From Geosiphon pyriformis uo1 (taxonomy: Eukaryota > Fungi > Glomeromycota), in assembly GCA_016748015.1 (NCBI GenBank), contig JAAOMT010000771.1, forward strand, positions 98,290-162,289: 64,000 bases of DNA, in the 5' to 3' direction. Both the position numbers and the translations under genes were made by a program. Under the pieces are notes generated by a model. That model ran no database searches. It saw only the letters and a list, made by a program, of their open reading frames with translations, and was not told the origin of the DNA. Shown here one piece after another: positions 6,593-64,000 of the stretch (its first letter is position 1; each line of letters starts with the position of its first letter).

Positions 6593-6596
6593 TTCT

Positions 6597-6611: not shown

Positions 6612-6660
6612 TGTTATCTGAGTAGAAAAACCGATTCAAAGTTATGAGAAAAAGTGACCA

Positions 6661-6870: not shown

Positions 6871-7224
6871 AAAGCAAAGCAATAGCTAGCAATAGTGAGA
6901 CAATTAAAAGCAAGCCTATAAAACCAAAAGAATATATAAAAGCAAATAGTTGTAGAAGTTGGAAAAAACAGACAGTTAGTTAGTAATCAATTTTTCTTTG
7001 TATTATATTTTTTATATATCTATAGTCTGAAATACAATAATTATTAAAAAAAAGAAACAAAAATCCAAATTACCAATTCATGTTCTCCAAATCTTATGAA
7101 TTTTAATTGAAATTAAAATCAGTGTTTTCTACTTCTGTTCTAAGACAGATGCTATTAGCATAAATGTCTCAAATCTTTAATAATTTGGACCAATCCCTCT
7201 TGATCATGGCAATTGATGGGAACT

Positions 7225-7226
<2 letters not shown>

Positions 7227-7258
<32 letters not shown>

Positions 7259-7283
7259 CTTTTTTTATTTTTTTTATTTTTTT
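7227..7283 (+). repeat. Poly-T tract inside the LTR
   Basis: About 32 uninterrupted T, then an interrupted T run. Confidence 0.95.
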
Positions 7284-7662
7284 GTTTGGAGTAACAACAT
7301 AAGAAAATTGACTGTTTTAGAATAGACTTTGTAATAGCCTGATAAAAGAGAAAAGCTTCTCTTAGGTTTTTGGATATTAATGTTATCTTGTTAGCTTACT
7401 AGAAGAGTGAAAAGACAATGCCAAACTTTAATGACTGTGCTTATAAGCTCAAAAAAAAAAGTTCACATTTATAGAAAAATATTGCAATCAATGAAAAACA
7501 AACTCTGTGTCTTATAACCAAAGAACTCAATAGGTAAATTCACATTCAGAAATAGACTTTTAGAGACTAATAACATTGATACTGTGAAAAACATACAACC
7601 TCGGAACACTAAATTAGAGCACCAAATGTTATCACCATACTCCACCAAGTTTATCCATAACA

Positions 7663-11620: not shown

Positions 11621-12154
11621 TTAAAACTCCCTTTTAGGAAGAATTATATGCTTTTTAGAGTAATATTACATAATCATTCTTTCAGGGTCTTTGATTGGAA
11701 GGAAACATAAAAACACATTTTCCGAGGAATTATAGCTAATAAGTTTAGAAACAGCTTTGAATGGCATTTTACTCGAAACACATGTGCATTAAGTACCTAT
11801 GCATGATTCGAAAAATGTTAAATTTATAAATTTCATTATCTGTAAGAAGTGAGCTAATCTTTGAAATTAATAAGGATGAACTGCAAAAATATCAAAATAT
11901 TAATACATTTCCAGGGGACGAAAATTTAATGCAAAAACATTTAACACAAACGATTAAAATAAATGAATATATGCGTATGTCATAGCCATAGACATTGCCA
12001 TTGCCTTGAAATTTTCAAGATTAAAAAGCCACAAGAAATTATAACTTGGGCTTCGAAAAATTTACTCTGAGGTTTACGTAAAAACTAATTTTGTTAAAGA
12101 ATAAAAACGGCTCAATATGTTTAACGACCTTGAATGTGTTAGAATCGTTCTAAA

Positions 12155-15100
12155 TATCTATGAAATTTGAATCCAAGGATATGATAATCGAATAACAATA
12201 TGATTTCAAAAGAGAAGTAATAATGAATATTGATATTGAATTATTCATATATATCCCGTACAACAGAGTAGAAAATGGAATAAAAATCCAAAAAAGATTT
12301 CTTATTACTGTAGCTTAAATATTTAAATGCATGAACATAGCATGCATAGAATTGCAAACTTCAAAATATACGGATGATATGGTTATCGAAAAGCATTATA
12401 TTATTAAAATTTATTTCTAAATTTAGTAAAAGGAAAAAGAAGAGTTTTTATGATTATTTGTGATATTTTTTACACATGGGCATAAATTACGAAGATTTTT
12501 TTTTAAATTAAGATGGACACATTGAAAATTCTCTTTTGATGTGGAAGAATGAAGACTCGTTGACTTGGGCTTGATATGTTTTCTAATGATTAGAAAAAGG
12601 AAGGGAATGGCTGGTTGGAGCATGTAAAATAGTCTTTGGATGGTGATGCCACCAAAGAAATGTGTGGTGTTGGCAACGATATGTCCGGTTTATTAGTGAT
12701 CAATTGAATTGACATTTGATTTCTTGGAGGACTTGAACTGGTTGTTGATAAGTTGTGAATTTGTAGAGGTGAGGAATGACGTAGATGCTGATATTTTTCA
12801 ATATCTATGATGATGGTTTAGATTGCTTCTTGTGCCAGCTGATAATTTTCATTTGATAAAACAACTGTTGAATTATGGAGATTTTATTGATTTTCTGAAC
12901 ATGGGTCATTCGGAACAATTGTGTTCGATACTTATTACTGTTTTTGAACTCATTGCGCTTTCTTAAAGCAAACGCCGAAGTTTTTATTTAGGTAACCTTT
13001 TCGCGATTGGTGAGGGTTGAAAGTCATAGAAGAGGCATTGGAGGTTCAACCCGTTTACTCGTAACTTTTCCAATGAATTATGAAATAATAGTTTATCAAC
13101 TTTTGAAAAATTGACATAACGAAAAGCACATCTTTGAGTTAACAAGCGCGAAGTTTTCATTTGATAAGTATTTTTAATCGTTTCAAAATCATAAAAAATT
13201 TTTACAAACATGAGATAACAGAGCATTTTCGCTGAATTGATTTCGTATGCATGCTTCTTCTTCGCAGAGCATGAGACGAATGGTTTCAAGAGAATTTTTA
13301 GAATTTGCTAGCTGATTACTAAAATTGAAAATTCTACAAGTATCATGTCGACGATAAAATTTGGAGCTGGATTGATCATTATTGAGTGATTGAACATAAC
13401 AATTTACAATCAAGAAAGTATCTTGTCCCTTATTGCTGAAAAAATGAAGTTATAACTGATAAAGAATTCTGGAACAGCTCAAGACCATTGGTTAATCATA
13501 ACGATGATATGAAAATTGCGAGAGATCGATCAAAAGCTTGTTTCGCGGCGAGTAAGTTAACTTGCGACTGTTGGCAAATTATGTTTAGAATAAATTAAAA
13601 GAAAAATATGGGTGTAAAATTTGAAAGATTGAAAACCAGGTCAAAATGTAAGCTTTATTTTATCAATTTTAACCGTTGAAAATCAAGAAAGACGAGACCT
13701 TAATACCCTTTGTTTGAGATATTCTCTATTAAAAAGTTTCAACGGGATCTGAAAGCAAAGTTCACAGAAGAACTAAAGTTTTTGTGTGTCTGAAACTAAA
13801 AGAGATTATGGTGAAGACCTATGATTTACATTTCCAGAATTTCTGAATATTCTAAATTAAGCATGTATTTAAAAAATTTTAACCCACTATTCCCATTGTC
13901 CTCCCAATAAATTTTTGTGATCTAAATACTGCTTATAAACAATTTTATATATGGGCATTCATTTACTTTAAAGTATTAGGATGGTTTTTTAAATGCCTAA
14001 TATCAAACAATTTTTAGTTCAATGTACATTTATATATTAAAACAAGTTTAATTTTTGTTGTTGTTGAAATAAACTTTCAGGTTTCATTCAATCGAAAATA
14101 TGAAGCAATTGAATTTTGAATTTGAACTTTGTCAAAAGTCGGGAATGTTTGACAACGATACGAGAATGTGTTTTTGTGGTCTAATACAGATATACTGGAA
14201 ATACAATGATCTTGAATTAATGTTGAGATGACGGAATTCCAAAATTTTCTGATGAAACTCAAAGTATTCGAAAAATAGAAGCTGTCAGATTTCCTTTTAA
14301 TTAAACTATGGTCTTTATTAGGAACACGATATTTACAATAAAAGCATCATGCCATATTTTTCTACGATAAAAATTCAACAATTAGAAAACTTGAATTGAA
14401 TCAGTCAGTTTCCTTTTGAGATGATTTCTCAAATTGACAAAAAATTAACATCATCCATTTATGCCAGATATTAACTTTCCTTAATTTTTTTTATGTCACC
14501 CATAACATCATTAGATGTAAAATCTAAATTTCCTAGAGAATTTGAATTAACACTTTGAGGAAACGTTTCTCGGTATAGTTTGCATGACTGCATCCCATTA
14601 TTATGAGGCAGGGATTTTTTATTGGGGCTTTGATTGATCCAATTCTATTGAATTCTGTAGGAACCGGACAAAGTGTAATTTAATAATTCCAAGAATGGTG
14701 TAATGGAAAAATCTATTTTTTAGAGCTCTTGGGCCACCATTATCTGTGAATAAACTTAAATTTTATTTTCACTAACTTTAAAAATTCATTTAAATATATA
14801 ACATAATGAAACGAAGTATTGATTGAGTTGCCATTGTAACATGTACAAGCAATTAAAAAATATAATGACAAATTGAGTTCACACATTCAAGAAAATCATA
14901 AAAATGTTTCTGATTTTTAATAAACAAATATGAAAACCCAAGTTTAAACAAAATATTTCCTTTTTAAATATCTTAATGAGAGCAATTACCTTGATAAGAA
15001 TTTTTTATTTTAGAATTCTGATTTTTCATTCTTGAAATGATTTAGTATTGAGTCGATTGATATCAATGTATTATCAGTAAATTTTACAAAGGAACAATTG

Positions 15101-27739: not shown

Positions 27740-30700
27740 TATGTACTTATATGAACTGAAGCCATGTCACCAACACCTGCATAAAACAAACAACACTTAT
27801 AATACCCAAAACTAATGCCAAGTGCATTAGCAACACTCAACAACCTAATTACTCTAGCCGATCATGTGGAATCAACTTATTCTTCTTCATAATGGCCCGG
27901 TGTTTCACATGGACCAGCCAGATATTATTACGAAATGCAAGACAAAACTTCCATATAAAATTTACAACATTGACCACTACCATCTTAGGATCCTTGTAAA
28001 CAGAAACAAACTCACAATACCAATTGCCAAAAACAAAACCCTTACACAGAATTGTACTGACAATCACATCCAAAATACAAGTCAACAACAACTGCAATAT
28101 GTACGAAAAAGAATGAAACAGACCAGAATGCACCTCCCAGGCAGCTACATAAGTGTCTAACAAATTGGCGCAATTATCAGCATCAGAAAAGCAAGAAAAG
28201 ACATGGTTTGAGACTTCTACCTCACCACAAAACAAACAAATTACACTGGAATAACCCCTATCATACAGATGCTTTCGCACAGCAACAGGAAAGTGATGAT
28301 AAAGAGCTTTCATAAAATATGTACAAAAGCCAGCCATCCAAATACTAGTAAAACCAGTCACCATGTGAGAATTCAGGTGCCACACCAGAGAGGACCTCAA
28401 CCAGTCAATATCAGCATGCAAACAACCTGGAACAACTCAGGAACCAGAACCAATCTCCCAATGCGCACGATGGATTGACCTGAATATGTCATGAACAAAA
28501 TGCCTCAAATTACCAAAAACTGTATTAACACCAGCCTTCAAAAACCTCTCACTGACCAAGTGGGGCAAATGCCAGGCAGAAAGGGCAGCATTCTTAGCCA
28601 GCGCATCAGCACACTCGTTGCCTGAGACACTCAAATGGCCTTTAACCTTAATCCAATTAACATCCAAATTTTTGTGATAAATAACATTGGTGATGTGACG
28701 ATGCTCAATTCAACAACAATTCTTGAAATCAGGGCCAACCAATAAAGACTTCGACCTGCAAGCATTGATAGCCACCTGGCTGTTCAAGAACAAATCAACT
28801 GAATGAAAAGAAGAAACACACTCAAAAACCAAAGCAATGGTCTGCAACTCTGCCAAAGTAGAAAAAACCAAACCAGAAACCCCTACACTCAGACCCAAAT
28901 TAATGTTTTCAAAGAAAACTGCAGCACCAGCCAATATGTCAACAGTGTCTAAGTTACTCAGAGACCCATCTGTGTACACAGAGAGGCAGGCGGCACCTAC
29001 ACTCAACAGATCATTACAAATAACACCAAAACCAAGAGACTGACAGATGTCAGAAGAACCACCAACACTCTCATAAGGGAAATGACAAGAAGGAAAAGCT
29101 ACACCACTAAAAAAACATACAGAGAAATCAAACTAAAAGGGGACCAGGCCATGAGAGTTCAGTCTTTTCCAACACTTGAAAGTCTTCCAATCAAAAACAA
29201 TGCCATTCCAGTCACAAAGCTGTTCTACAAAAGCAATACCATAATGCCTAAGGGAGGAGACACATTTGAAGAAAATTGTCTTACTGAGTACTAGAGACAT
29301 AGAAGTACCATACCAAAGACAAAAAGCATCAGCCAGAGATCTACCCAAAGACAAATCACACCCAGAAAAAATACAAACCACACCTGCCAAAAAGTTGTTT
29401 GAAGGGCTGACTTTAACACGAACAGAAAACAACAAAGAGTGACGAGAACACCAGTTAAGAACCTGGAGATTGTGAGACCTATAAGAAAACAAGCAACCCA
29501 AAACACCAACCGAATTTGCAAAAGCAATAACAGAAGCCAACTTGCTCTCAGCCTGAATTTGCTCAAAAGTCTTTAAATTGTACAAGAAAGAATAATAAAG
29601 TGCATCATTGGGAAAGTCCAAAGACAGCCCAGATTTGAATTTCAGGACCTTGTGAATTAAAGCATTCCATTTATTACACATACTGAGAGGAATAAAACTG
29701 AACTGAGTTTTGTAGCTAACAATATGAAAGAGAACTGAAGACACCAAATAAGCAAACTGTTTATCTGAAATAATTTTTTTCAGAATAAAATTGACAAAAA
29801 ACCGAATATCTGAATGTGCCTTAACCAAGCTAGACTTTGAAAGACCATTAGAAGATAAAAAAATACCCAGATAATGATGAGATTCACCTCTTTTAGTGAT
29901 GGAAATTGGCATATCACTGATAGTTAAGTAAAGAGCAGTGACCTGACAGTTGATAGAAATGGCCACAGTTTTGTCATTGTTTATCGAAATGTCATTTAAA
30001 TAAAAGAACTCACTAGCAACATTGAGGATGTGTTGTGTAGCAGCTTGGCTGCTACCGACCCAGATAGTATTATCAACAAAAGCACTAGTGGCCAGAAATG
30101 ATGTTAGCCCAGCTTGAGATTCTACTTGGCCAGTCTTAGAAACAAAATGAGAAATCAACCTGTAACCACAAATGCTCTTCTGTTTCTTAACCTTACACAA
30201 AAGCAAATCATAAAATATGCACTAGAGAAGTGGTGAAAAAACCTCTCCCTGATCTAATCCATCGTGAACATGATATCTATTAGTCAAACCAAAATCTGTC
30301 ATCACTCTGTTAGTGCAACCATTATGAATGCTACCAAAAAATCTGATAAATTTGTCACATATTTTGATCCTGATCAAACTCCTCTTGAGATGTTCCCAAC
30401 CAACAGAATCATAAGCTTTGCGCATATCCTGTAAAACCAGCCACAACTTTCAGTTTTTTTCCAAAGCATCATCGATCACTGAACCAATAACAAAGATAGG
30501 CGATTGAGTAGACATATTTTTCAGAACAGAGAAATTGTCCCCACAGAGAACATTAAAAGTGCTACAAGCCAGAGAGATCTGATTTGAAAGAATCTTGGAA
30601 AGGATCTTGCAAGCTGTTTCAATCAAAACAATAGGGTGAGTATTTGTAAGAACCTCTTCTCACTCGTAAGATTTAAGAATTATTAAGACCCAGGTTTCCC

Positions 30701-32384
30701 TCCAAGATCCAAGTACTGACTAACAACCCAAACAAAAATTTAAGAGCACTAAAAGCATATCCAAGACTGACTTGTAACAGTGTTTCTAAAGTTTATTAAG
30801 GATACCAGAAAGACCAGCTGCTTTCTCATCGGGCAAATTTGAAATAATACCAAACATCTCATCAAAACCAATTGAATACATTATATCAGAGAAGGCACCA
30901 TTGAAAACATGATCCAAAAGCAGAAATTGCCTTGTCCAATCACCAAAAATATCAGAAGCCACCACACATTTTCTAGTCCAACTCTCCATGATTCCATCTA
31001 CCTTAGATTTAACCAACTTAGGCTCCAGGACTAACTCTCTACCATCTACCAAATGATCCAACACTACTTTACAAAAAGGATGCTCCAAAACACTTTTAAT
31101 AGTGTGACTCTTATCCACCTCAAAACTCTCTATTCTCCTCTTAATAGCCTGCCTTATACTAGATTCTTCAGCACACTTAGATTCCAACAACTTAGAAGAG
31201 CGGTAAGACTTTCTTGTCTTAGCCAGCCCAGAATGGATTGCATCAAAACCAGCACCAGAAAAAAACAGAAATCTCACTGGTGAAGTGCTCACAGAATTAA
31301 GCCTGTTCCAAATATCCAACAACAAGACGAAATCTTCACCAAAAACCAACTGAAAAGCCTTCACCAGTTTAGACACAAGTAGCTCCAGTTTATGAAACCA
31401 GGAAGATACCTTATTAAAAACACAATCAAAACTCCTAAACCATTTTTTCTTGAACATTCCACCAGCCAAAAGAATTATAACTTTATAAACAATGTCCCAC
31501 ATTGCATCCAGATCAGAAAACTGCTTAGTTACAACAAACTCATCTAAGAACATAACAGCATTAGCAGCTGTAGCATTCCTGAATTCTGACCACTTAATCT
31601 TATTGGTATTTTTGACATCATACTTCCAACAATCTCTATTAGCTTGTTTGTGCAGTGAATTCAGCTGGACATTGAGCAGGCCATCCAGTCCCACAAAAAC
31701 ATAAACAGTCTTGTGATTAGTATCAAAATATTCCTCAACACCATCCACACCACAATCCACCACCACACCAACCAAATTAGAAGAAACAAACATGTAGTCA
31801 ATTGTCTTAGTAATACCACAAGAATTGTACCAAGTAGGTGACTTTACAAAAGAGCTCCCCCTCAGAGAGTTAATCAAACCCAAATCAAAACATTTTTTGA
31901 AACTGGCACATTTGTGCAAACCATCTTTATTAAAATCACTACCAAGAATAACAAAAGAAGACTCATTAATGGCTTTAGCAATAAGAGAGTTGATCTCACC
32001 AGCCTAAGAAAACTGAGCTACTGATGAAGCACCAGCATAGAGCCCCAAAATAGACACTGAAAGTTTATTTTTGAAAAGCAACTTTATGGATAAGAGCTGA
32101 CCAAGCACTTCAGAGATCTTGTAGATGTGCTTTGCTAAAGAAGAATTCATGACGATTAACACCCCAGCATCCAAAAAACCAGAATCCAGACCAGAAGTAA
32201 AAACCTGAACACCATCAAATTTGTTGGCCAACCATGAGTGAACTTTCCCTTTAAGCTTTGACTCTGTGAAAATAGAAACCAAATTGTCCATATCTTTGTG
32301 CCAACAAATGATATCATCTTGCTTTGCAGGATTGTTCAATCCATGAACATTACATGTAGCAATTTTCCATACCAGACCACTAAT
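27740..32384 (-). pseudogene. LINE ORF2: AP endonuclease, reverse transcriptase, RNase H, C-terminal zinc finger
   Basis: KIATCNVHGLN...FTESKL...ILGSDFN...TIDYMFVS...TNH (APE); QDMRKAYDSV, QGEVFSPLL, AFVDNT (RT); VYTDGSL...AELQTI...IKVKGH...GNECADALAK (RNase H); CLFCGEVEVSNHVFSC. Confidence 0.93.
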
Positions 32385-34081
32385 TGAGAAAGAGGTAGAG
32401 GAAGAGCACCACCTGCCAAAGCCAAACTGTCTAAGCATGCTGATAGGCTCATGACCGAAGCAGAGAGACCTTCCAACATGTTTTCCAATTTCACAACCTC
32501 AGGTGAGGCAGTTAAACCAAGAATGGCAGCAGTCTTGTCACTAGTGGCATCACCTGAACTCACTTTCATTATTATATCCTTCCTTTAATTCTGCGATGGG
32601 GGGGTCACTGGCAGCTGACATCCAGAGCTAGGCTGGGAAACTGCCAGCATGAATGAGTCTAACCTCTTAGTTAACTTACCAATTTGTCTCACAAGGCTAA
32701 CAAGACTGCTTTCAATATTCTTCAAACAGTTTTCCAATTCACCATTAACAGTCAGAAAAGCCAAAGAATGAGAAACAGAGGCAAATTTTTTTTCATATAT
32801 CTTTACCAGACAGAACTGATCCTGAGCTAAGAGAGGAGCTCTCTTGCTCCTAGGACTTGAGAACACACCAGCAATACGACAAGCAAGAGAAGTATGACCA
32901 GAAGTTTTGCAAATTAAGCACAGTACAGCAGTTAAATGAGACCATTGGAGACCAACACTTTTTATAACAGGAGTGTTTGCCATTGCCTGAATAAGACTAC
33001 CTTCAGAATTGAAGCACACAGTGGTACAGCATGCTCAGACATAACTGACAGAACTGTATTCAATAACACATGTTTTCCCACTGACTGAACCAATGAAGTC
33101 CCAAAGATCATAAGTGTTGGTGCCCATGGGGAGAGTATAAAGCAAAGCCCTAAATTCATCTCTGGCATTCCATGTTTGTTTGTCAACATCGGCCTGAGCC
33201 ACACACACTGCATTTTTTCCAATAAGGATGGACCACTTAGCTGCCAAGAGATCAGCCTGAATTTGATCCTCTAATTCAATGATTGCTTTTTGCCATAGAC
33301 CTACCAACTGCATCTTGATTGACTTAATACACCCAAATTCAGAAATGGCTGCATGCACTTCCTCAATGGAAGTTTCCACAGGAATTTTTTTCAACATAAT
33401 TGCCCAATTCATATGATTGTTGATGGGGTGCTTAAGATTGGTGTTTACCACAACACCACAATTATTTGCCAATTGTGCAGCTGCCATCATTGTCTTTTCA
33501 GAAGTGAAAAATGCCTGGATGATTCCCCCAAATTTTGAGGGGGTAGAGGCCCTCCCAAAACCATTTACACTTAAAAAGATTTTTCTGACAAAATTGACTT
33601 TTTCCTGAGAAGATTTTCCAGCCACCACTACCAGATCAATATCTAAAGTGAAGGATTTGCAAACAGGCACTTGAATAGACAGTTTGACTGGAAGAGAAGA
33701 TAAGAGAAATAGAGAATCATCCAATATATCATCTTCTGTATCAACAGTATCATAATCAATTACACCCAGTGGCTTCCCTAACACTTTCTTGGTCTTCACA
33801 CACAAATCTTTTGGTGTTTGATCAAGATCCCCTCCTGCAAAAGTACCATATTCATTATAGTCCACACTGGTTTCTTCGACCAAACATTCTTCTTTCATGT
33901 CAATACTCTCAGATTCCATAGTATTACCAGTCTCAAAACCCCATGAACAAACACCAAGAGCTTTGGCAACAACGCCTTTATTATCAATACTCTCTTCCAA
34001 TACACTTCCCTTCCTTTTCTTCCTTGATACAACAGTCTTGAAACCACCCTCAGAACCAGAAACTTTAATGGTCTTTTTCAT
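32381..34081 (-). pseudogene. LINE ORF1 (RRM-like region and CCHC knuckle)
   Basis: ORFs 33035-34081, 32585-33019 and 32336-32569; CLICKTSGHTSLAC knuckle; predicted coiled-coil C-terminus. Confidence 0.8.
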
Positions 34082-37000
34082 AACAGCAATAACAAAGCCA
34101 ACAGTGGCCTCGTAATCAAAGAATGGTTTTAATTTATCATACTGAATGGTAAAAAACTTCTTTCGAAAAAATTATAGACTCTTTTTTGGGATTTTTGGAT
34201 GAAAGAGAGAAAGAAGTTTTTTTTTAATAGTAATTAAAGACTGTTTTGTTTTTATATTATTTAAAAAAAGCATTATTTAGTTGTTTCTACTTTAAAAAGA
34301 GCTTTTTAAGTATTAAAACTGGTAAAAACATTATTAGAAATAAAAGTTATAACTAATATACTTTTTGTTTTAGATGTATTTGTAAATTTAAGAAAGAAAA
34401 AAATAAATTTTCTAATAAATTTTAAAAATAGTTTATCTTTAAATAATTTAAATAATGCAAAAATATTTTAAATTTGTATAACACAAATTTTTTTATAATA
34501 TAAAAAAAAATGTACTAAAAACAAATTATTTTATTAAGTTTTTAAATTGTTTAAAGAATTTAATTTTTATAATAATAATTTTTAAGTGTCTTTATATTAA
34601 TTTGTTTATAATTTTAATAATATTATATTACTTTAAAAAATAACAATAAAAAATTAATTTGGTTCAAAAGTTAAATTAATTTGAATGGAAATTTATTTTT
34701 AAAAGTTATTATTGTTTTTATTAAATTGTATTTATTTCAAATTTAAAATTTTCAACTAATAATTAATATATTTTTTTAAAAAAGATATTTTTTTTTTTAA
34801 ATATATTACTTTAAATTTTAATATTATTATTTCACTATATTTGAGAAATTTTATTAAAAATAACAATTGAAATAAAATAAATAAATATAAATAATAATGT
34901 AATAATAGTACAATAATAAATTAATAGTAAAATTTAAATATTTATTTATTAATAAATTTCACAATTAATAACAAATATTAATAAATTTATAAAACACATT
35001 TAAAATTGTAAAAATAAATAAGCTAAACAATATAATATGTGCCAATAATATATTTGCAAATAAAATAATTTCCATTTTAGTGTTTAAACTAAAAACAATT
35101 TTAACAAACTGTCAAATAATTAAACATATATATTTTTAACAAATATTGGAAATAATATTATAGAAAATAAAAAAAATACTTAAAGTGTTATATGATAAAT
35201 GTATTTAAAAAGCTTGACCTTTCTTGATTTTAAAATTATAATATAAATTATATATATGTATAGCAGTTTTTAACCATAAAATAATATTTCATGATTAAAT
35301 TGTGTTTTAATAAATAAATTTTTATATTAATATCTTAAAAATAAAATTAAATTAAGATTATTACCAATAATACAATTTAAAAAAAAGAAAAAAAAGAAAA
35401 AAGTTTGATTTTAATTTAAAGATAAGATAATTTAAAATTAAATGATGTTTTGAAAAATTTGTTTATATAGTTAATAAAAAAACAAATATCAAATTTAACA
35501 ATCAAGTAATAACTAAATTAATAATTAAATTAACTCTTCCAGTTATCAAAAGTGTGAACCAAATTAAAAACTTGTTTGAAGTTTTATCTTTAATTTGGGA
35601 TCATTTCTTATTTTTCAAGATCCATAGTTTTATTTTCTTGATTTTAGCAATTCTAGCATCCAAAGATGAGAAATTTCGGATCCCCAAATTTATAAATTTA
35701 TTTTAATGAATCATTTGCCGAATAAAATTATGTTGATTCAAAAATAAATCCTTCGAAAGATGGTAAACTTAAATCTTATTGTATAGATTGCACTTAGAAA
35801 TCAAAATTTTTATTAGTCAGCCAATTATTCTTGGCTAAATAGGCATTGATTTTCTTTCCAAATTTATGACCATGTGACGAATAAAAATAACTAATCAATT
35901 CACATCCCATTAAGTTGGTTGGTCTCACGCCGGATTATTCACGTTGATATCTTTCTAGTTTTCATGACCGATTTGATTATTATAAATTTTCCTTGATTTA
36001 AATTTATTCCTTGATTTAAATTTATTCCTTGCAAATGATCAAGCTATAATAGGTGAAAGAAATTGTTAGAATCTGTTGAATATTTGAAAAAATTTAAGGA
36101 ATTATTTTTATAACTTTCGGAATTGAAAAAAGCTGGACTGATAGGATTATATTTTGAAATTTAAACTAAAGAATTTATATTAAAATTTATATATTGCTTT
36201 GATAAGTAGTTTTTTTTCACAGATTCTAAGCATAACTTTGATGCGCAATAAAATCATATTAATCACTAGTGGATTAATTTTTTCTGCTATAGAACCATAT
36301 TTATTATTATTATTAATGTTTAACTCTAACAGATAAAACAAAAATACTTTCTTTTCATGTTTTTTCCTTTGTAAAAATTAATATAAAAACAAGCTAAGTT
36401 TTTGAATTTTTATGCAGCAGCTTAAAAACTATAAATCTGTAAGATCTCTCAATGAGGGCTTGTTTCATTCAATTTAAAACTAAGAATACAAATCATTTTT
36501 TTTAAAAAAAGCTTTCTAATCAGTCATTCACAATGATAATATCTATCAAAGAAAGCATCAAACTAAAAATTACTTTCAAAAAGTTAATCGGCAAAAAATC
36601 TTTTTATCGTTTTTCATTGTATTTTTTTTAGATTTAATTGCGCATGCAAACTCTATATCTATCACAAGTATTGTTAAAAGGGAGGATTTATTTGAACCAT
36701 TTTCTTTGAACGATAATATTAATTTAAACTTGGATCCTTCGAACGATAATATTAATTTAAACTCAAATCCTTTTTCCCTATCTAGTAATCCTTTTTTTAG
36801 ATAATAATAGCCAAAATACTAACCCATGAAATGGAATCCCCAGTTCACAAGAGATAGGCAACTTGGCATTTTTGCCATCTATAGATAATAGTGAGTTAAA
36901 TAATATACCAGGATCCTCAGCTGAAACCTCCGAATTATCTGTTCAAACGGATCCACTTCAAATAGCTTCAAATAATTTCTTTTATTACTTTTTAGTTTAA

Positions 37001-48300: not shown

Positions 48301-49577
48301 CTTATATTTTTATCATTTCATAATTTATTATACTTTATTGTATTTTTTGTTGCGTAAAATAATTAGTTATATCATTACATTAATTATATAATTAAGTAGT
48401 TATTTAAGTAATATAAAATAGAAGATTGAATTTTTTGTAAAATAATTCAATAATAACAAATTGATTTTAAAATATTCGGCTAAAAAAATTATACATAATT
48501 TAATTAATATTTTATTTTTTTATTCTTATAGTTCTTTAGTTTTTACAAATAAAATTATTCACATACGTGTTTTTTATGATATAGAATAATAGAATAAATA
48601 TAATTTTTTATTTAAAAATTCTATAAGGTTTTTAAGTATTAATTTTACAAAAATTATTATTAATTTATTAAACTGTTTTTTACTATCTTTCATTTGGCAA
48701 TTTTTTGTTTAATAATCTTTAGTTTTGATATATTAACTTCATTATTAATAACTTAGAATAAATTTTATTTTTTAACATAGAAGCGAATTCCAATAAAAAC
48801 AAAAATTAAAAGTGTTAAAAGTTATATTATATTATAATCGAGAATAAAAAAAGTCTTAGTCGTCATAAAAATCTCGGTTATAAATTTTTTGATAGTTCCA
48901 AGCGTTTTAGGAAAAAAAATTAAATAATTTAGCAAGAATTGTGGAGCTTTTGGATTTTGTGTTCTATAAGATTCATTGAATTTTTTATCTCCATGAAATA
49001 ATAAAAGAATCAATGAAAACAATTATAATAGAATCAATCAATTTTATTCAAAAAAATTGCTTATTGCGAATACAAATATTTCAATACTCTAAAAAAAGAT
49101 AAAACTTTGTATGATTCAAATGTTTATAATTAAAATTTGAGGAATAAAAGTAAAAATTTTATCATTAACTTTTTATTATAGATAAAAAATTTGTTAGCAA
49201 AATATTTTCTCTTTTAATTAAAAAAATACTTTAACATTAAACAATCTAAAATATTTGGAAAGATGATGTAAGCATGGGAAAATGACCAAAATTCACCAAT
49301 TTTTGAATAACTTATTTTAAATGAAAAGATATTCAAATTAATTTCAAAAATGGTTTGATGGTTTGAGAATAAAATAGAATAAAGAAAAAGTTTCAGTCAA
49401 GAATAATCTGAATTTAAATCAACAGCTTAGAAATTTCATGCTTTTCAAATAGAGGCTCTGATAATGAGAATTAATTGATCAGTCGATAAAGTGCAGATTA
49501 ACATGTGACTTAAGTATACAGCAATGTGTTAATAGCATAGGGAAAAAGACCGCACACAGACTTCTCATATTTTACCA

Positions 49578-51082
49578 ATGTCACCCCAACAACACTTTCA
49601 CGCTTTATCCAATGATTTTGGGAATTTATTTAACAGTCAGAAGTTCTCTGATATTAGAATTACAGTTGGCGAAGCGCCAAATATTACAACTTTTCGTGCT
49701 CATTCCCAAATTTTAGCAGCAAGATTACCATATTTTACTGTTGCATTCTCTAACAAATGGGTTAAAAGGGAAAATAATACCATTATTTTTGCTAAACCTA
49801 ATATTTCAACTGATATTTTTGAAAAAATTATCAGGTAAGGATTTTCTTTTACTTCAAAGTTTTTTAAAAAACATCAAATTCACATGTCTTATTTTCCTGC
49901 AGATACATTTATAATGGCGAGATCTCTCTTGATGAACATGGAGTACCTATTATTTTAGAATTGCTTGTTGTCGCTAACGAACTCATTCTAGAGAATCTTA
50001 TTGATCACCTTGAAGACTATTTGATTGAATACCATGCAAAAGATCTAGAAGAAAATTTTGCCATATTGCACAAAATTTCATATATGCATGATTCTTTCAA
50101 AAAGTTACAAAACTTCCGCACCGAAATAGCTGCTATGAATCCAGCTATAGTTTTCAACTCGCAAGATTTCACCTCCCTTAGTGAAAATGCTCTTTCCTCA
50201 ATTTTAAACCGGGATGACGTAAATATAGAAGAATCTAAGATCTGGGAAAAGATTGTGGAATGGGGAGTTGCTAAATTGGATAATAATATTCAGATCAAAA
50301 AAGTTCTTAGCTGGACAAATGAAAACTTTAACGCCTTTAAGGAATCTTTTGAAATGCTTCTACCTTTAATCCACTTTTTTAACATATCTTCAGTTGACTT
50401 TTATCACAAAGTAAAACCATTTGCAAGAATCTTACCTGGAACTTTATATGAAGATTTTTTACATCATTATCTTGTACTGGGTAGTCATCAAAAGTCTGTA
50501 GATGGTCAGCCATTACATTGCTCTCGATTAAATATTGATTCAAAGCTTCTTCGATCGTATAATATAAGACAGCTTGATCATTGGATTCAAGGCAAAGATA
50601 AAAATACTCCTTTTGAAGATCGACTTGGAAATGATTTTCAATTGTTACTGCGAAGCAGTTAAGACGAATTCACTCCAGCCGATTTTCATTGATTATGCGA
50701 TAATAAAGGAGCAATAGTCAGCGTAATCAAAGTGAAAGGAACTGGTCAGCTAATTGGTGACTATAACCCACAATCGTGGCATTCTAGGGATGAATTTTCA
50801 GAGGGAAAAGGAAGCTTTATTTTTTCCCTTGGAGATGGTAAAGCTGAATATGTTCAACTTAGCAAATTTATTGGAGGATATGGACCTTTATGTGGGCCAC
50901 ATACTGGACCCCACTTTGCAGGTGGCAGTATTTTCTTGTTTAGCAATGATTTTCAAAATAGCCCATTGTGCTATTGTGGAAAGACAAAATATTATGAGTA
51001 TGCTATAATGCCTGGATCAGAAAATCTACCAGTGAATTTCTCTTTCGAGGAGTATGAAGTTTTCCAAATTATAAAAAGATAA
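49578..51082 (+). pseudogene. BTB/POZ-BACK-TLDc domain protein; intron 49835-49902; two premature stops
   Basis: FSDIRITVG...FRAHSQILAAR (BTB), ESKIWEKIVEWG (BACK), LLLRSS*DEFTPADFH*LCDNKG...LIGDYNP...EYEVFQI (TLDc). Stops at 50660 and ~50690 replace conserved Arg codons. Confidence 0.92.
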
Positions 51083-55665: not shown

Positions 55666-56766
55666 ATGTCAGCTATTGCAACCAAAATTGTTGAAAAAAT
55701 ACAATCTTAATTTAAAGATAAGTAGATCCAAATTTATTCAGTATACTTTTAAGTTGCTTAATGAACTTACAGATGATAGAAAGAGGAATCAAGCACGAAG
55801 ATGCCTCAAAGATGATTTCAAATTTAGTAATGAGCAGATAAGTATATTGATTCCTATGCAAAAAAGTGGCTGGCGAAAAGACATAAATTTTACAACTCTA
55901 AGTAAGGTTTCACATAGTGAAGCTGGACACTCCGACTCTATGCCAAATTCAGAAGAAACCATCAAAGAACTGGCTCAGTATATTTTGCACAATAATTTCA
56001 GCATAAAAGATGTGAAAGCTGAAACTCATAATTTGGCTAAATCAGTACCAAATGCTAATGTCACTTCATCACGCCTTTCTCGATTCAGAAGAGAATTACA
56101 AAATCTCAGTGCTTTATCCGACATTATTGAGGCAACAAGATTTCCTAATATTATGAAAAATCCAATGAAATTCAGAGAAATCAGTGAAGAAAAGCTAAAG
56201 AACTTAAGAGAATCGATTATCTGGACCATTTCACATTAGAATCAGTAAAAGAGGAATTGAATAGTTATGTTGTATCTAATTATCAAGTCTTCACTGATAT
56301 TATGATAATGCTTAGTATGTGCTCTGCTGAAGTTAGAACTTTACGTATTACAAATAAAGGCATAATCGACTATGTAAAAAATTAGAGTCAGCAAGATATC
56401 CCACGAACATTTAGGTCTCTTGAGAAAAATCGAAAACCTGCTAAAAAATTATTAACCTGGATACAAAATGCCATATCTTCTAAAAAACTCGGGGATTCAG
56501 GGATCTCAGAGACTAAATGGTTCAATGCATTCTTAAAAAACTATAATCTTATTCCTCGCTACTTACAAAAAATGGGTGCAGTCTATGCTGTTGTGGTACA
56601 TGGGGCAAAAAATTTAGTCCATGCTATGGCAATCACCCAAAAAGCCTTAAGGCATTCACCTGAAAATAATACTTTTCCAACACAAAACTATGTTTTAGTC
56701 AATTACAGAAAGAGAGGCACCTCACCTGAGAAAGTAAGACCATTCTGACTATATGGTGAAAATTAA
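55666..56766 (+). pseudogene. Protelomerase/telomere-resolvase-like tyrosine recombinase, frameshifted
   Basis: ATG at 55666, frameshifts in A-runs (~55697, ~56157). Joined translation ...SSRLSRFRREL...IMLSM[C]SAEV...DYVKN*...PRYL[Q]KMGAVYA...ALRHS...TQNY follows the R-K-R-H-Y order. Confidence 0.65.
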
Positions 56767-59580
56767 GAGTCAGAGACTCACCCCTTACAGGCCTCACACT
56801 CTTTACTTTTGTTACGTGTACACTAGAGTTCATCACTCGACTAAAGTTGAAAACATAAATTTCATTTATAATTGACAAAAAAGATTATTATTTTATTTAA
56901 AGCTTGAATCTTATTTTTTTTGGATTTTTAACTGTTTAATTTGATTTTTGTGACTGTTTTCAAGTAAATTTTTACTAGTAGTTTTTCTTTTTTGTTAAAT
57001 GGATTCAAATAAGTTGTAAAAACTAATAAAATTTTTTATTTTTAAAAAACAGTTTAAAGATAATTTTGGAGTTTAAGCTTAAGTTAAAGATGCTAAAAAT
57101 AATATAATAATAAGTGGTGTTTTGCTAAAATCTGCTTCTGGTGTTTGCATATTTTTGGCAGCCAGTTTTGGTGTATTAGGTACTGTTTTTGTAAACTTTA
57201 GAATTATATAATCCAGAAAAATGTGGACCAACCACTGGTGTGATATATCAACGCCGATTTATAATACAGGAAAAATGTTCGCAGATCGCTCAGAAGTCAC
57301 GGAACTACAAGATATATTTGATCTTGGAAAATTTTTGACTTGCGCGTGACAGGCTACTCGTTATCCTTATCTACTTCGTGCTATCAGTTCCACAATTTGA
57401 AATTTCGCGCAGTAAAGAAACCATAGTATTTTCGAGATGACGAAGCATGAATGGCATAGATATTTCGACAACAATGAAATTAATTTTAAACAAATAAAAA
57501 TAAAATAAAATAAAATAGAAATTTAATATTTTGTTTATAGTCATATATTAAAATTAGCAATTTAAGTTGCTACTAAAATTATGATTTTTAATATTTGTTA
57601 ATAAATAAAAAATATTAAAAGTTTTGATTTATTACAATAATAATGTGTTTTAAATAAAATAAAATAAATTTATTTAAATACAAAATAACTTTATAAAAAT
57701 ATTCATTTTATATATTAAATTTATATATATTTAATTTGTTTTTTATTAAAATTCTTTTTATATTATTTTAATTCATATATATTAAAAAACTTTTTTTATT
57801 TAACTAATAAAAAAATTAATAATTATATTAATAATTATATTAATATTTCAAATTATTTATAAATTATGTTTTAGTTTTTTTATATAAATATTTTTATTAC
57901 TTTTTGGTTTTTTGGTTTTACATATTATAATATAACAAAACTTAATAAGATATTTATTATTTATATAATTATTAAATTTAAAATAAATACTATAAAAAAA
58001 AGTTTAATTAAAAATAAAAACATTTCAATTTTTAATTTTGTAAAAAATCTTATTAAAAAATTGATTGTAAGTAACAATAAGATATTTAATTAAAACATAA
58101 ATTTACATATAAAAAACATATAAGTTGTATTTAATATAAAATATTTTATTGTTAAATTTATTTAAATAATGGTTAAATTATATTATATGCAAATAAATAA
58201 AGAATAAATAGAGCATAATTTACTAAATTTATTATTTATTTTTTAAAAATTTAGTTTTATTGTATATAAATTCAATTATTTTGTTGATAATTGACAAACT
58301 ATTACAGATATTACTTTAAAATTTAATTAACATGTTTAGTTTTAATTTTTAATTTAAAAATGAAACTCATAATCCAAAACTATTTATTTGAAAAACTATA
58401 AAGTTTAATAATATTTTGGAAAACTAATTGAACAATATTTTTAAAGATTAACGTTTTTGTATATATTATTATAGTTAACCAATTGATTATTATAAAAATC
58501 GAAATTTTTTTATTATTTTAAAAACATTAATTAACTTAATTTTGTGTTTTTTAATTAATTATTAAATTATGCAACTACATCCAAAAAACTTAAAAATAAC
58601 AACATAAAATGAACTTTTTATAATATTAAAAATTAATTAATAAGTTTTTTATTTAATATTCTCAAAAATAATAAATTGATTATTAATAATTTTTAATAAT
58701 ATAAAATAAAATAATTTATTTATAATCAATATATTTTAATTTATTAATAAAACAAAAAATAATATTAAAATTAATTAAAATTATTATAATTACATTAAAA
58801 TTTGATTTAAATATTTAAATCTTTACAAAAAATTAAAATCCTAATAAAAAGTTTTGTTTTTATTAGAATTAAAACCAAAACAAAACTGGTTAATCAACAT
58901 TTTCTTTTTTCAATTTACATTAATAAAATTTTTAAATAACAAAAAAACATGTTTAATTAAAAGAACAAATTAAATAAAACCTATTTTTGTAAAAAAAAAC
59001 ACCAATAATTCTTATTTAATTTATATTAATTAAATAATAAGTTAAATTTAATTAATAAACCTTAAACCTTTGAATAATTACTATTTCATTTTCTAGACAA
59101 ATTAATTTTAAATTTTAAATTTATAAATTAAAATGAAATAGCTTAATCAACTTGTAATTAAGCAAAAAAAATTTTAAATAAGTATTTTTTAGCTGAATTA
59201 TCTAAAAAGCTTAAAAATTTAAATAAGATAAATTTATTTTATAAAAATAATAAAATTCATATATATAATACAGCAAAACAAATAAATAATTAATTAATCC
59301 AAAAAGTATTTAATAATTAATGTTTAATCTACTTAAAAACCAAAAATTAGTTTAATTTTTTATATATATTTGAATATTTTTTTTAAATCTTATTATTAAT
59401 TAACCAAATTAGTAAGTTAATTAAATATTCCAAAATATCTAATGAATTTTCTTAGTATATTATAGCTTATAAGAAATAACATAAAACTTTTTTCACAATA
59501 AGCCTATATTTAATTATATTATAATTATATTATAAATAAACACTCTATCAAAAATTTATATTAAATAAGTTAAATTAAAA

Positions 59581-60555
59581 NNNNNNNNNNNNNNNNNNNN
59601 NNNNNNNNNNNNNNNNNNNNNNNNNNNNNNNNNNNNNNNNNNNNNNNNNNNNNNNNNNNNNNNNNNNNNNNNNNNNNNNNNNNNNNNNNNNNNNNNNNNN
59701 NNNNNNNNNNNNNNNNNNNNNNNNNNNNNNNNNNNNNNNNNNNNNNNNNNNNNNNNNNNNNNNNNNNNNNNNNNNNNNNNNNNNNNNNNNNNNNNNNNNN
59801 NNNNNNNNNNNNNNNNNNNNNNNNNNNNNNNNNNNNNNNNNNNNNNNNNNNNNNNNNNNNNNNNNNNNNNNNNNNNNNNNNNNNNNNNNNNNNNNNNNNN
59901 NNNNNNNNNNNNNNNNNNNNNNNNNNNNNNNNNNNNNNNNNNNNNNNNNNNNNNNNNNNNNNNNNNNNNNNNNNNNNNNNNNNNNNNNNNNNNNNNNNNN
60001 NNNNNNNNNNNNNNNNNNNNNNNNNNNNNNNNNNNNNNNNNNNNNNNNNNNNNNNNNNNNNNNNNNNNNNNNNNNNNNNNNNNNNNNNNNNNNNNNNNNN
60101 NNNNNNNNNNNNNNNNNNNNNNNNNNNNNNNNNNNNNNNNNNNNNNNNNNNNNNNNNNNNNNNNNNNNNNNNNNNNNNNNNNNNNNNNNNNNNNNNNNNN
60201 NNNNNNNNNNNNNNNNNNNNNNNNNNNNNNNNNNNNNNNNNNNNNNNNNNNNNNNNNNNNNNNNNNNNNNNNNNNNNNNNNNNNNNNNNNNNNNNNNNNN
60301 NNNNNNNNNNNNNNNNNNNNNNNNNNNNNNNNNNNNNNNNNNNNNNNNNNNNNNNNNNNNNNNNNNNNNNNNNNNNNNNNNNNNNNNNNNNNNNNNNNNN
60401 NNNNNNNNNNNNNNNNNNNNNNNNNNNNNNNNNNNNNNNNNNNNNNNNNNNNNNNNNNNNNNNNNNNNNNNNNNNNNNNNNNNNNNNNNNNNNNNNNNNN
60501 NNNNNNNNNNNNNNNNNNNNNNNNNNNNNNNNNNNNNNNNNNNNNNNNNNNNNNN
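59581..60555. other. Assembly gap (N run)
   Basis: Run of N. Confidence 1.
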
Positions 60556-61873
60556 AAACGGACCGACCCTCTCAAAGCGGAAGAAGTTACAACGACATGC
60601 CAAGAAGGCGAAGGTCGAGATTTTCTACAATCCGGTTAAAGTAAGTTAAATTATATAGTTAATATTTTTTAGCGGCTTCGAGATACATTGCATATATTGT
60701 TCGACAGTTGAACTTGAAGTATAGGGGCAATCATTCGCCTTTCGAGGCAAAGTCTAGGGGCTGATTGAACCCTCCCTCGCAAAGTTTTACTTTATATATT
60801 TTACCTTCAAGAATGGGTTACCAAATTATTATTGTCCTTTAGCAAGGAGAGAAAGATCCGATACGCTTTCTAAAACCTCCGAGCTATCTATAGGATGAGA
60901 AATTTTTTGTGTGTATCCTTCTTATTCTTTTTGAAATCTATAACTCTTTGAAATATATTACCCCTTTAATATCTACATATATTCATATCTATTATATTTT
61001 TTTTTCTTTGCACAAAACACAAGCGGAGACTTGCAGGCTTACAAAAAAGAAATCCGTGATTATATTCGGTCATGTTGGGTTTATGAGGACTTTAAACCTG
61101 ACGATCTTATCGAAAAACTTTTAGAAGATAAATTTCAAAGACATATTACCGAAATAAATTCAACCGATTTGATTTCCAATGACAATAAAGAATTCTCGGT
61201 ACCCACTCAATATTTAGAGTTGTTGGAATATGAAATTTTTCACGCTAAAGACCCTTTTAGATCAAACCTCTTCAGAACTGTGGGAAAAGTTTGAACAGTG
61301 GGCAGGTTTTGAAAAAACTAAAAATTTCGACATCTTTGCTATCACTTATGAAAAAAAAAAACAAAGCACGCGTACGAACTACATATAGAAGCCCAAAAAA
61401 GTCCTATGGAACTTTATGATATCCCGAATGTGTTCCTATGCCGTCCGAACGATAAACTTTTTATAGCGAATGAAGCAACTAAGAAGATTGCGGGTGACGT
61501 TCATCTAGACGGTTACAAGTATGTTTTAAAAATGCAATTGGTGAAACGATGATAGATTTCTTCGATCTCAACAACCACCTGGCCGTAAAGACTGCACGAG
61601 TGATAGTAGATCAACATTATAAACAAACCTTAGTGAGCCTTCTCATCGATCTAACCAATTCATCAAGGATTTAATAGAACATTTCGGTTGTTTTACCAAT
61701 AATAATAATATACCATATGTCACTTCGAATCCTGCTTTTACACATTCCCAGGAGCATCGTAAGTGTGTTCAGGATTTGATCCGAGGACTTCAGCCACTTT
61801 CTGACGCAGTAAACGATTATCTTAACAACGCATATCCGGCATTATACATTAAAATGAAAAAACTCAACTTAGG
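60556..61873 (+). pseudogene. N-terminal part of a putative 2OG-Fe(II) dioxygenase (TET/JBP-like family), truncated before the HxD core
   Basis: Exon ...KRKKLQRHAKKAKVEIFYNPVK then GTAAG (60641); acceptor ~61036; frameshifted reading to ...EHFGCF...PYVTSNPAFTH...LQPLSDAVNDYLNNAYPALYIKMKKLNLG. Family assignment is from recalled similarity; the catalytic motif is not in the window. Confidence 0.45.
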
Positions 61874-62238
61874 AGGTCAGTCTCAGACTCAGATAAGGAT
61901 GAAGATGAGGATGATGAACTACTAAGATTGATCTTTCTTTTCACCTTACATCGAATGCATTTATGTCGAGAAATGTTTGGGTTTGTTATTGTGTTTATGA
62001 TTTCTTGACAAACCTCAGGTTTCACTATCTTCAGTAATTGGTGGAGAGAAATCTGAATTGTTTTATTTAACATTTGAGATCTAAGACTAGATATCACTTT
62101 ACTAGTAGAACTATACGCAAGCATGTTGTTATTCCGAGACTCGTGGTTGTTATCCGATGTAATCTGTTGCTTTATCAAAGTCGCGAGCACTGTTCCAATA
62201 TTTTTATGGGACTCAATGTTGTTGTTAGCTTCAGTCAT
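61874..62238 (-). pseudogene. 3'-truncated hypothetical protein with Ser-rich linker
   Basis: ORF 61864-62238; QISLHQLLKIVKPEVCQEI followed by poly-Ser, ending abruptly at the junction with the convergent gene. Confidence 0.5.
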
Positions 62239-62544
62239 TGTATGAGTTGGATTATTATTTATTTATACGCATTAAAAAAACTATTAAAGATATTTGGATA
62301 TTCGTGAAAACATACTAATCATGGGAATAGGAAGTCACCTCGAAGTGAGAGGGCTAAACGCATTGGAAAGTCTTTCCAGTTGAGATAAGTAAAGGGAGTG
62401 AACAATTATTCATCTCGACTAAAGTCGAGTTGGTTATAATATACTTTGCGATGTCACGGCTTAATATTTTTAATATACTCTATAACAACATATCTTACGT
62501 TTTGTAGCAATCGACCTACTTAACAGAATATGATTTTTTTCCAA

Positions 62545-63730
62545 TTATAAAGTGGATGGTATTGTATAATACCCACCTATTTCGAGATCAGGATCTAATG
62601 CGTCTAATGCCCCTTTGCTGACATTTACACAATGTTTTAACCCGAGGTATTTTAGACCGGATAAATGGTGTGCGATATTTTTGATAGTCATGTCAGTGAG
62701 AAGTCTACAATATTCCAATTCGAGATCTTGAATATAAGAACACTTTTTGGCTATTTTAGAAATAGATGAATTAGTAATAGATTCTGACCCGTAGAGATTG
62801 AGGCATTCCATATTGCGGCATAAATTCGCTATTGCTTCTACTGCAGTATCGGTGACATAGCAAAATTCCAGGCTGAGATAACAAATATTTGGACATAATT
62901 GCACAACAATACATATCGTTTCATTGTTAAGAAATTCCAGGGATTTAAATGCGAGGTGTTCCAGATTATGACATTGTGCGATTTGTCTGATGCCTATGTC
63001 AGTTACTTTATTACAATCACTAAGATTTAATTTTCCCAGATCTGAGTACGAACCTACAAGAGCATGGATTATGGCATCGGTAAGCATTCTGCAGTCATTA
63101 AAATTTAAAGATTGGATATTGGGATTGGATCGTGTAATTTCACGTATAGATTTATCAGTAATACAACCGTTTATTCCTAGATGCCTTAAGCTGTAACACG
63201 ATCTTGGAATTTTATAGATAAACTTATCAGTGATATATCCGCCCCAACTAATTTCCAAATACTGTAATTTAGGACATCTTCTTGCGAGTTCGATAATAGA
63301 AAAATCAGTCAACCCTCCGTTGCCAAAAACATTAAGATAAATTAAGTTAGGATATGCCCGAGAAATCTTGATTAATGCTGTATCATCGAACCCACAACTT
63401 CGTTCAAAATCAAGGTAATGATTTTTTCGATTACCTTATTTGAGAGTTCAAAGTAGTGCGTAAGTTTGAGATATCGCACACATGAAGCATAAAATGATCT
63501 TGTGTTTATATCAAACAGTCCAATAAACTTTTTCAGTTATATTTCATATTTCATGTCGAAGGCAGCCCCATGTCCTATCAATTTAATGCGATGCCATAAA
63601 ATTGGACCGGAACACATGGACCAGAGCCTGAAAACGAATAAAGCAGAATATAGCGATTCGTCTTCGACTAGGAAATCAAAAATTTTTTCTAGTTATTCAG
63701 GCCATAGTAAATACAGTATATAATGAGGTA
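62545..63730 (-). pseudogene. F-box/LRR (RNI-like, FBXL-type) protein; 5' part frameshifted
   Basis: F-box PE*LEKIFDFLVEDESLYSALFVFRLWSMCSGPILW (~63590-63705); 255-aa LRR ORF 62545-63312 with repeated CxxLxxLxLxxCxxxTD units. Confidence 0.88.
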
Positions 63731-64000
63731 ATAAAAAATACTTATCTTTAATTTAGGGAGGCTTAGCCTCGTTGCTCCGCAACCCCGAAATCTCTCGCGA
63801 TTCTTGCTCTAACACGCGTGTTATATATGCTAATTTATTCGCTTTACGGAATCGGAGATAAGTCAGCGACTCCCGAAACCTTTGATTTCTCTCCTTATAC
63901 CAATTTATTTTTGTATATGTCCCTTCGAGTAAATAAAATACTGCTAAACCCGAGTTTCTGTGAAACAGATCTCATGTGCTACAGATATTGTGAATAGTGC

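Follow-up and report, generated by a model that had tools for sequence, protein, structure and literature searches.

A decayed gene of predicted protelomerase fold in Geosiphon pyriformis and its apparently undescribed, multi-copy family across Glomeromycotina

Hairpin telomere resolvases and how the fungal locus compares

Known protelomerases come from bacteria and phage-plasmids, with a few more in giant viruses of algae. The closest described systems are the hairpin telomere resolvases TelA (Agrobacterium), TelK (phage phiKO2), TelN (phage N15) and ResT (Borrelia), represented in Pfam by PF16684. In the accessible text of one report, a His three residues before the second catalytic Arg (HxxR) characterizes classical recombinases and not protelomerases, and the linker-helix residues of TelA that act in hairpin refolding (Y201 and R205) are poorly conserved among protelomerases (PMC3558466). 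Endogenous phaeovirus elements are described, in the available part of another, as carrying an integrase and a telomere resolvase together with a telRL-like linearisation site (PMC13236599). For AM fungi, the portions of the literature at hand report Mavericks or Maverick-type ATPases from Glomus/Rhizophagus (bioRxiv 10.64898/2026.06.19.733378; PMC11075540; PMC7805220) and giant-virus genes from Rhizophagus irregularis (PMC5294986), and place two-thirds of AM-fungal transposable elements among the unclassified (PMC11075540). Within the literature covered, no protelomerase or telomere resolvase was described for fungi, Rhizophagus or Polintons, and no hairpin-ended linear lifestyle was found described for fungi.

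We analysed a 64,000-nt stretch of a Geosiphon pyriformis contig (JAAOMT010000771.1; hereafter the window), which holds a decayed gene of a family resembling these enzymes. As in the hairpin telomere resolvases, a helical N-terminal domain, a long linker helix and a catalytic domain are predicted to form a two-domain clamp, the R-K-R-H-Y residues stand in matching motifs and the HxxR His is missing. However, the fungal enzyme is shorter (380 aa vs 631 for TelN), has no Pfam match, bears an extra N-terminal helical unit of ~60 residues and sits in fungal nuclear repeats. Like the N15 replicon (RepA, TelN and telRL), the fungal element places its protelomerase-fold gene close to one for a large Herpes_ori_bp-type replication protein, and it contains a CGCGCG-cored palindrome. 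This palindrome is 18 bp long and ~3 kb downstream, whereas that of N15 is 56 bp long and 165 bp upstream; the helicases share no detectable BLASTP similarity, and the fungal element has a eukaryotic host, an A32 ATPase and a probable integrase where N15 has tailed-phage genes.

Among eukaryotic systems, the phaeovirus elements of Ectocarpus (EsV-1, FsV-158, EVEc) and EhV-86 offer, as far as their accessible descriptions go, the parallel of an integrating virus with a telomere resolvase; phaeoviruses are algal giant viruses that integrate by a tyrosine recombinase, whereas the fungal element is apparently small and multi-copy, with a probable integrase of retroviral type. The Maverick/Polinton elements of Glomus/Rhizophagus share with it an A32-like ATPase, a probable integrase with a chromo-like tail and an AM-fungal host according to the available text, which does not mention a telomere resolvase. 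Whereas a protein-primed polymerase is what defines classical Mavericks, the genes seen here are a primase-helicase and one of protelomerase fold. Finally, the Glomhoppers (DUF3504 CryptonA) of Glomeromycota are described in the accessible part of their report as having a tyrosine-recombinase-class enzyme and being numerous in these fungi, for the most part as decayed copies (PMC13465315); unlike them, the present family shows no DUF3504 match (0/20 members), has a predicted protelomerase fold and lies beside replication genes.

A dead copy in the window

The pseudogene occupies 55666..56766 on the forward strand. From an ATG at 55666 to a TAA at 56764-56766, its path of 366 codon positions shifts frame twice and meets three in-frame stops. 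A preliminary description of this DNA, made from its letters alone, had joined a protein of ~365 aa across two A-runs and named five catalytic codons, all of which were recovered here. The A-runs lie at 55694..55699 and, within the predicted linker helix, at 56156..56160. The first catalytic Arg site is occupied by TGC (Cys, 56320..56322; RPAE in the family, GRRxxE in protelomerases) and the second by CAA (Gln, 56566..56568; family LRK, aligning to TelN R383), while the catalytic Lys position reads AAA (56377..56379; family GYAKNR, protelomerase GQxKKR), the catalytic His position CAT (56653..56655; family LRH, aligning to TelN H416) and the likely nucleophile Tyr TAT (56689..56691; family QNY). 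The single stop noted in the motif IIDYVKN* is present as a TAG at 56383..56385, but two others had been missed, a TGA at 56185..56187 and a TGA close to the C-terminus at 56746..56748. The helix SSRLSRFRREL in the N-terminal helical domain (56066..56098), also pointed out there, is conserved across the family alignment (for example, Arg at position 151 of the intact homolog P0012 in 67 of 90 rows, 15 others being gaps).

P0012, of 380 aa, spans the whole path in three tblastn pieces (100%, 52% and 55% identity, E 2e-107), and the frameshifted reading is therefore not due to chance. Each of the three stops stands opposite an Arg in most intact homologs. The window copy, which has lost both catalytic Arg residues, is a dead gene, itself a fossil; a Pfam scan of its pieces gave no significant match, and the window contains no second copy. 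Its His-to-Tyr spacing is 12 codons (TelN 9, TelA 11), and the Tyr at 56689 is probably the counterpart of the protelomerase Tyr, from which hhalign offsets it by three residues.

We then compared dinucleotide decay with that of relatives. CpG observed/expected (O/E) was 0.43 in the window copy and 0.64–0.92 in the genes of nine relatives. Aligned with the gene of L001, a soil-metagenome locus described below, the window copy keeps 8 of 38 CpG, and 21 now read TG, CA or TA; of 50 GpC sites serving as a control, 20 were kept, so that the excess of CpG loss is real but moderate. At the DNA level, the first Arg codon of motif-matched loci was CGT or CGC in 51 of 69, CAT in 11 and TGC in 6. These variants fit CpG transitions, implying that TGC and CAA in the window are decay products, and the lesions of the window copy do concentrate on Arg codons, where CpG decay would be expected to strike. 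Ratios of dN/dS were 0.13–0.24 in all seven pairs, including pairs with the window copy, a sign of purifying selection which indicates that the gene was functional through most of its history.

The pseudogene is an isolated GC island (32–37% GC within DNA of 8–27% GC) in a window whose eukaryotic DNA is rich in AT and in repeats and includes decayed ORFs that look like those of retroelements, element types being assigned by eye. No helicase, ATPase or integrase was found near it in the window, which speaks against the explanation favoured below. A search for terminal repeats around it returned AT-rich chance matches only, and the 100–300 nt that are conserved upstream of intact genes were barely alignable. 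Homologs of two genes that lie downstream of intact enzymes do occur further along, across an assembly gap (N 59581-60555). One, at 61864..62262 (reverse strand; 5 kb from the pseudogene), corresponds to the small gene that immediately follows the enzyme in the intact elements L001, L002 and L018 (44% over 116 aa, E 2e-17). The other, an F-box/LRR gene at 62545..63752 (reverse strand), matches cargo genes found downstream of the enzyme in five loci (L015, L029, L048, L062 and L076), its link to the pseudogene being uncertain. Given the intervening gap and undepleted CpG (O/E 1.10 for the first homolog), these less decayed genes, 5–7 kb off, possibly belong to another, younger copy.

Other parts of the window differ in composition. 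Positions 60556-64000 have 35% GC, a CpG O/E of 1.10 and element-type genes, and are possibly part of a related but younger element copy, the rest of which would be in the gap or outside the window. Retroelements of Gypsy-like and LINE-like appearance, decayed and assigned by eye, are present in 1-14000 and 27849-34171 (CpG O/E 0.23 and 0.15), a BTB/TLD-type host gene typical of AM fungi (also by eye) lies at 49468-51082 on the forward strand, and a small higher-GC island with short broken frames at 57050-57450 had no match among the fetched loci.

A Pfam-invisible family with a predicted protelomerase fold

The C-terminal half of the window copy retrieved 23 longer proteins (42–60% identity), and one intact member used as query gave 356 matches. 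Among the 120 of these that were listed, Gigaspora, Diversispora, Entrophospora, Cetraspora, Dentiscutata, Paraglomus and Rhizophagus were represented, often by several proteins per species. Every relative with a named source belongs to Glomeromycotina. A profile search of 1.84 billion representatives returned 560 matches at E ≤ 0.001; ten distant members looked up among the 150 listed comprised three Glomeromycotina and seven environmental proteins, six of the latter keeping the full five-residue catalytic set. A further homolog search seeded with the distant members returned only three of themselves. The family is apparently an undescribed one of protelomerase fold, present in multiple copies across Glomeromycotina. 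Public names on its members include "hypothetical", "integrase" and "D5-like helicase-primase", and the last two appear to have been mis-propagated. The extra N-terminal helical unit is duplicated in some members (P0005-P0009, P0013 and P0016 have a second copy).

Catalytic residues were tallied in a 90-row alignment, its sequences picked from the fetched proteins because they span the catalytic half. The first Arg site holds 78 R, 6 C, 4 H and 2 gaps, and the second 75 R, 4 H, 3 C, 1 K and 7 gaps; intact homologs therefore carry Arg at both sites where the preliminary description had reconstructed it. The His and Tyr it had singled out are likewise kept (74/90 and 71/90), as is the Lys (80/90), so that the R-K-R-H-Y set is present in the family. 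Three positions ahead of the second Arg, all 20 rows compared have K, R or S, and none has His. In a quick tree, the window copy fell within an L001-type clade near Paraglomus copies and gave no donor or direction; its row is under half filled, and long branches meet in the tree. Nor do the paralogs, many and divergent within a species, group by host genus in it.

Structure prediction brought the family closest to protelomerases. A first full-length model was poor in its catalytic half (pLDDT 66.9), with Foldseek tying Cre with TelA, and in a wide search with the full-length model the only long alignments were to TelA/TelK. With a deeper alignment, a 278-residue intact core was modelled at pLDDT 90.8 and pTM 0.81. 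Against 48,161 chains, this predicted core reached Z 14.2 with TelA (256 aligned, rmsd 4.7; Z 13.7 for a second TelA chain), 12.9 with TelK (257 aligned, rmsd 4.9) and 8.8 with the ResT catalytic domain (141 aligned, rmsd 4.1), and no other chain had Z ≥ 8. Recombinases scored lower (lambda Int 7.5, XerA 6.9, Cre 6.5), as did topoisomerase IB (also ≤ 7.5). The whole two-domain core of the model, linker included, superposes on TelA/TelK, at a structural identity to protelomerases of 13–16%. In Foldseek, TelA/TelK took ranks 1–5 (TM 0.46–0.53, compared with 0.35–0.42 for most Cre rows) and the EhV-86 telomere resolvase ranked second among viral models, every E-value against PDB and viral models exceeding 0.001. 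The protelomerase likeness first read from motifs is accordingly matched by the best structural hits, and intact members are shown computationally to combine R-K-R-H-Y with what is, in the predicted models, a protelomerase fold. A predicted linker helix (P0012 170-190) has near-invariant T173, N177 and Q180.

At the sequence level, ties to protelomerases are weak. PF16684 was found in none of 27 members scanned (20 + 7, E up to 1), while the positive controls, TelN and a Leptolyngbya protein, both matched; a sequence search of PDB with family members also gave no match. Language-model searching with a distant member does reach PF16684, the ESM Atlas returning ResT-TelK_cat clusters at 0.97–0.98 (193–195 of 256 features). 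A profile aligned with seven known protelomerases placed R, K, R and H in register (E 5e-5; hhalign probability 62–67%, without a recombinase control), pairing RPAE with RRxxE, GYAKNR with GQxKKR, LRK with SRA and LRH with LGH. Against TelN alone, the probability was 0.12, which is not significant. By fold and residues, the family may be called telomere resolvase-like. A CryptonA/Glomhopper enzyme or a Starship captain, alternatives raised at the outset, was rejected, as neither DUF3504 nor DUF3435 had a match in 20 of 20 members.

The element, its palindrome and competing readings

To place the enzyme in its genomic setting, we used the best 80 of 124 soil-metagenome loci, counting upstream context on the 26 with at least 500 nt upstream. 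In four of these, which are near-identical copies of one element, the enzyme gene lies just downstream of a Herpes_ori_bp primase-helicase gene of 1,084 codons (E 8e-12), which presumably carries N-terminal primase motifs. N15 RepA matches the same Pfam family, but BLASTP detects no similarity between the two (E 0.07). A second helicase-like gene is upstream in seven of the 26 (DUF5906 in L064). Gene models in named genomes fuse the enzyme with the same neighbours as in the metagenome loci; the Cetraspora model P0017, for example, joins the first-type helicase to it. The upstream ORF ends of L015, L024, L029 and L078 look like helicase tails by eye, had no BLASTP or Pfam match and were left out of these counts. 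The large primase-helicase gene of L001 (396-3650) contains two TGA stops, and in contigs of two runs a C replaces the T of the second, so other copies are open there.

Downstream of the enzyme are small conserved genes, aspartic proteases, and F-box/LRR or RING genes. L018, 99.7% identical to L001 over 6.7 kb, extends this order: 8–9 kb downstream of the enzyme it holds a Pox_A32 packaging ATPase (E 7e-8, above the cut-off; one in-frame stop) and an integrase-like gene. The C-terminal part of the latter has Atlas neighbours named "transposon-derived F54H12.3 family" (0.97) and Chromo/rve (0.90). F54H12.3 is, we assume, the nematode Maverick integrase, and the fragment is a probable Maverick-type integrase; Pfam rve had no match in this C-terminal part. 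A zinc-ribbon and nuclease stretch fused behind it (L018:9834-10420, reverse strand) has no Pfam support, and its nuclease portion contains what we take to be a PD-(D/E)XK-like motif. An ATPase or integrase was seen in 1 of 80 loci, most of which are too short to reach that far. This linkage rests on one contig that carries a hAT insertion, and nesting of unrelated elements is possible. The hAT transposon (zf-BED transposase) lies within the enzyme gene near codon 218 (L007:2757-5956 and L018:1-521), an arrangement that suggests residence in a chromosome; L007 and L018 resemble opposite sides of such an insertion.

Read data agree with integrated copies. Depth was fairly even along 12.8 kb of L001 in four of four soil runs, and variants were mostly transitions, as expected of several similar integrated copies. 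Sixteen soil runs contained 81–91% of the words sampled from the 10 kb between the enzyme end and the integrase, ~38% of which lies beyond L001. Within a 16.6-kb composite, Pfam recognised no capsid gene, no protein-primed DNA polymerase B was found among the ORFs (the element is incomplete, and 3.9 kb of the L018 contig is outside the composite) and no element end was seen, the contigs stopping before the termini. No RNA datasets with the element were listed, and neither prokaryote genome contigs, which thus lend no support to an endobacterial source, nor a phage collection gave a match. No locus came back from viral contigs, whether the query was the palindrome, the ATPase, the helicase, the family itself or its distant members; one relative was confirmed there without its DNA.

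A GC-rich palindrome of 18 bp, intergenic after the RING gene (L001:9597-9614, L018:4008-4025, L002:5515-5532), has the same CGCGCG core as N15 telRL and the TelK target. Located ~3 kb downstream of the intact enzyme gene, it is the strongest centred palindrome of the element, perfect in L001 and L018 and with one mismatch in L002, and CGCGCG occurs nowhere else in the 80 loci. Any perfect 18-bp palindrome arose in 69–70 of 400 shuffles and a GC-rich one in none, GC-richness being a criterion chosen afterwards. The palindrome is absent from the 5.2 kb covered of the sister locus L004, contigs of three of four runs read straight through it and in two runs a variant joint skips it. As a candidate cut site of the enzyme it is a weak lead, and it may instead be no more than a hairpin formed in RNA past the RING gene. 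No palindrome rose above shuffles in the other loci scanned or in the window, and the conserved 100–300 nt upstream of intact genes have none; the conserved palindromic targets envisaged in the preliminary description were nowhere convincing across eight loci or locus parts. No strand-change (fold-back) joint appeared on L001 in four of four soil runs, a weak result in that the data were assembled contigs. As a separate observation, L077 begins with a perfect 32-bp palindrome (positions 1-32), within a repeat-rich insert standing where the 5' part of the gene would be; a transposon end or a turn in the assembly is its probable origin.

The copy number, the CpG decay and the conservation of neighbouring genes support the earlier view of a decayed copy of a mobile element or virus. 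With moderate confidence, we favour reading the window copy as a relic of a Maverick/Polinton-type endogenous virus, the free DNA of which would be linear, with covalently closed hairpin ends made by the protelomerase-fold enzyme; the hairpin-ended linear state is what we infer from the enzyme and its setting. In such a cycle, the element would leave the chromosome, and the primase-helicase with host polymerases would copy it from an internal origin. An enzyme dimer would make a staggered cut in the palindromic junction via a phosphotyrosine bond and refold each cut end into a hairpin, as TelN does beside RepA in N15. This mechanism would stand in for the protein-primed polymerase with which classical Mavericks handle their ends. 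The integrase would then insert copies, which the host methylates and erodes into relics like the window copy. More tentatively, and short of even belief, this could be a recently active AM-fungal Maverick-like lineage that alternates between an integrated state and a hairpin-ended linear episome, having an N15-style replicon (origin-binding primase-helicase plus protelomerase) in place of protein-primed replication, with the CGCGCG palindrome as cut site and an enzyme family extending to environmental elements.

If true, Maverick-like viruses would have a second way to solve the end-replication problem, fungal nuclei would harbour a large Pfam-invisible protelomerase family, some of the repeats now unclassified in AM-fungal genomes would gain a name, and a DNA virus of AM-fungal plant symbionts would be indicated. 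A eukaryote-adapted hairpin-forming enzyme might also be of use in making closed linear DNA.

The main rival is that a protelomerase descendant acts as a site-specific recombinase on a circular element, in integration, excision or dimer resolution, without hairpin ends. Two substitutions turn TelA into a Cre-like recombinase according to the accessible text of one study (PMC13221069), and fold alone therefore does not fix the reaction. Helicase-primase Polinton-like viruses are described, in the available parts of two sources, as typically integrating by tyrosine recombinase (bioRxiv 10.64898/2026.06.19.733378; PMC7805220), and both the missing fold-back joints on L001 and the missing convincing conserved palindrome would suit such a role. 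However, the two-domain core and linker fit TelA/TelK far better than any recombinase in the predicted models, the HxxR His is absent and one element already has a separate integrase-like gene, so that we consider this reading unlikely, if a serious one.

More doubtful still is a hairpin-maker serving a capsid-less linear plasmid or replicative transposon (primase-helicase, protelomerase and cargo), with the ATPase and integrase of L018 coming from a neighbouring Maverick. The single locus in which either gene was reached, the capsid gene that was not found and the at least one nested transposon in L018 are all compatible with it. Against it, the sampled words from enzyme end to integrase recur in the 16 soil runs, and Maverick-related A32 ATPases are reported from Glomus/Rhizophagus assemblies in the accessible text (bioRxiv 10.64898/2026.06.19.733378).

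Compared with the favoured Maverick-type virus, debris of an endogenous giant virus (Nucleocytoviricota), as the telomere resolvases of phaeoviruses and EhV-86 might suggest, is very improbable. The second rank of the EhV-86 resolvase among viral structural matches, an asfarvirus-like polymerase noted in the available part of an R. irregularis report (PMC5294986) and the occurrence of A32 ATPases and primase-helicases in giant viruses too would fit. Nevertheless, the scanned neighbour proteins include no giant-virus core genes beyond those shared ones, and the compact repeated module (protease, F-box, RING cargo, integrase) fits a small element. An enzyme domesticated by the host for fungal chromosomes or telomeres would agree with purifying selection and presence across Glomeromycotina, but is hardly credible given many divergent paralogs per species unsorted by host genus in the quick tree, the numerous broken copies whose catalytic Arg codons bear CpG-type lesions, and neighbours that are mobile-element genes.
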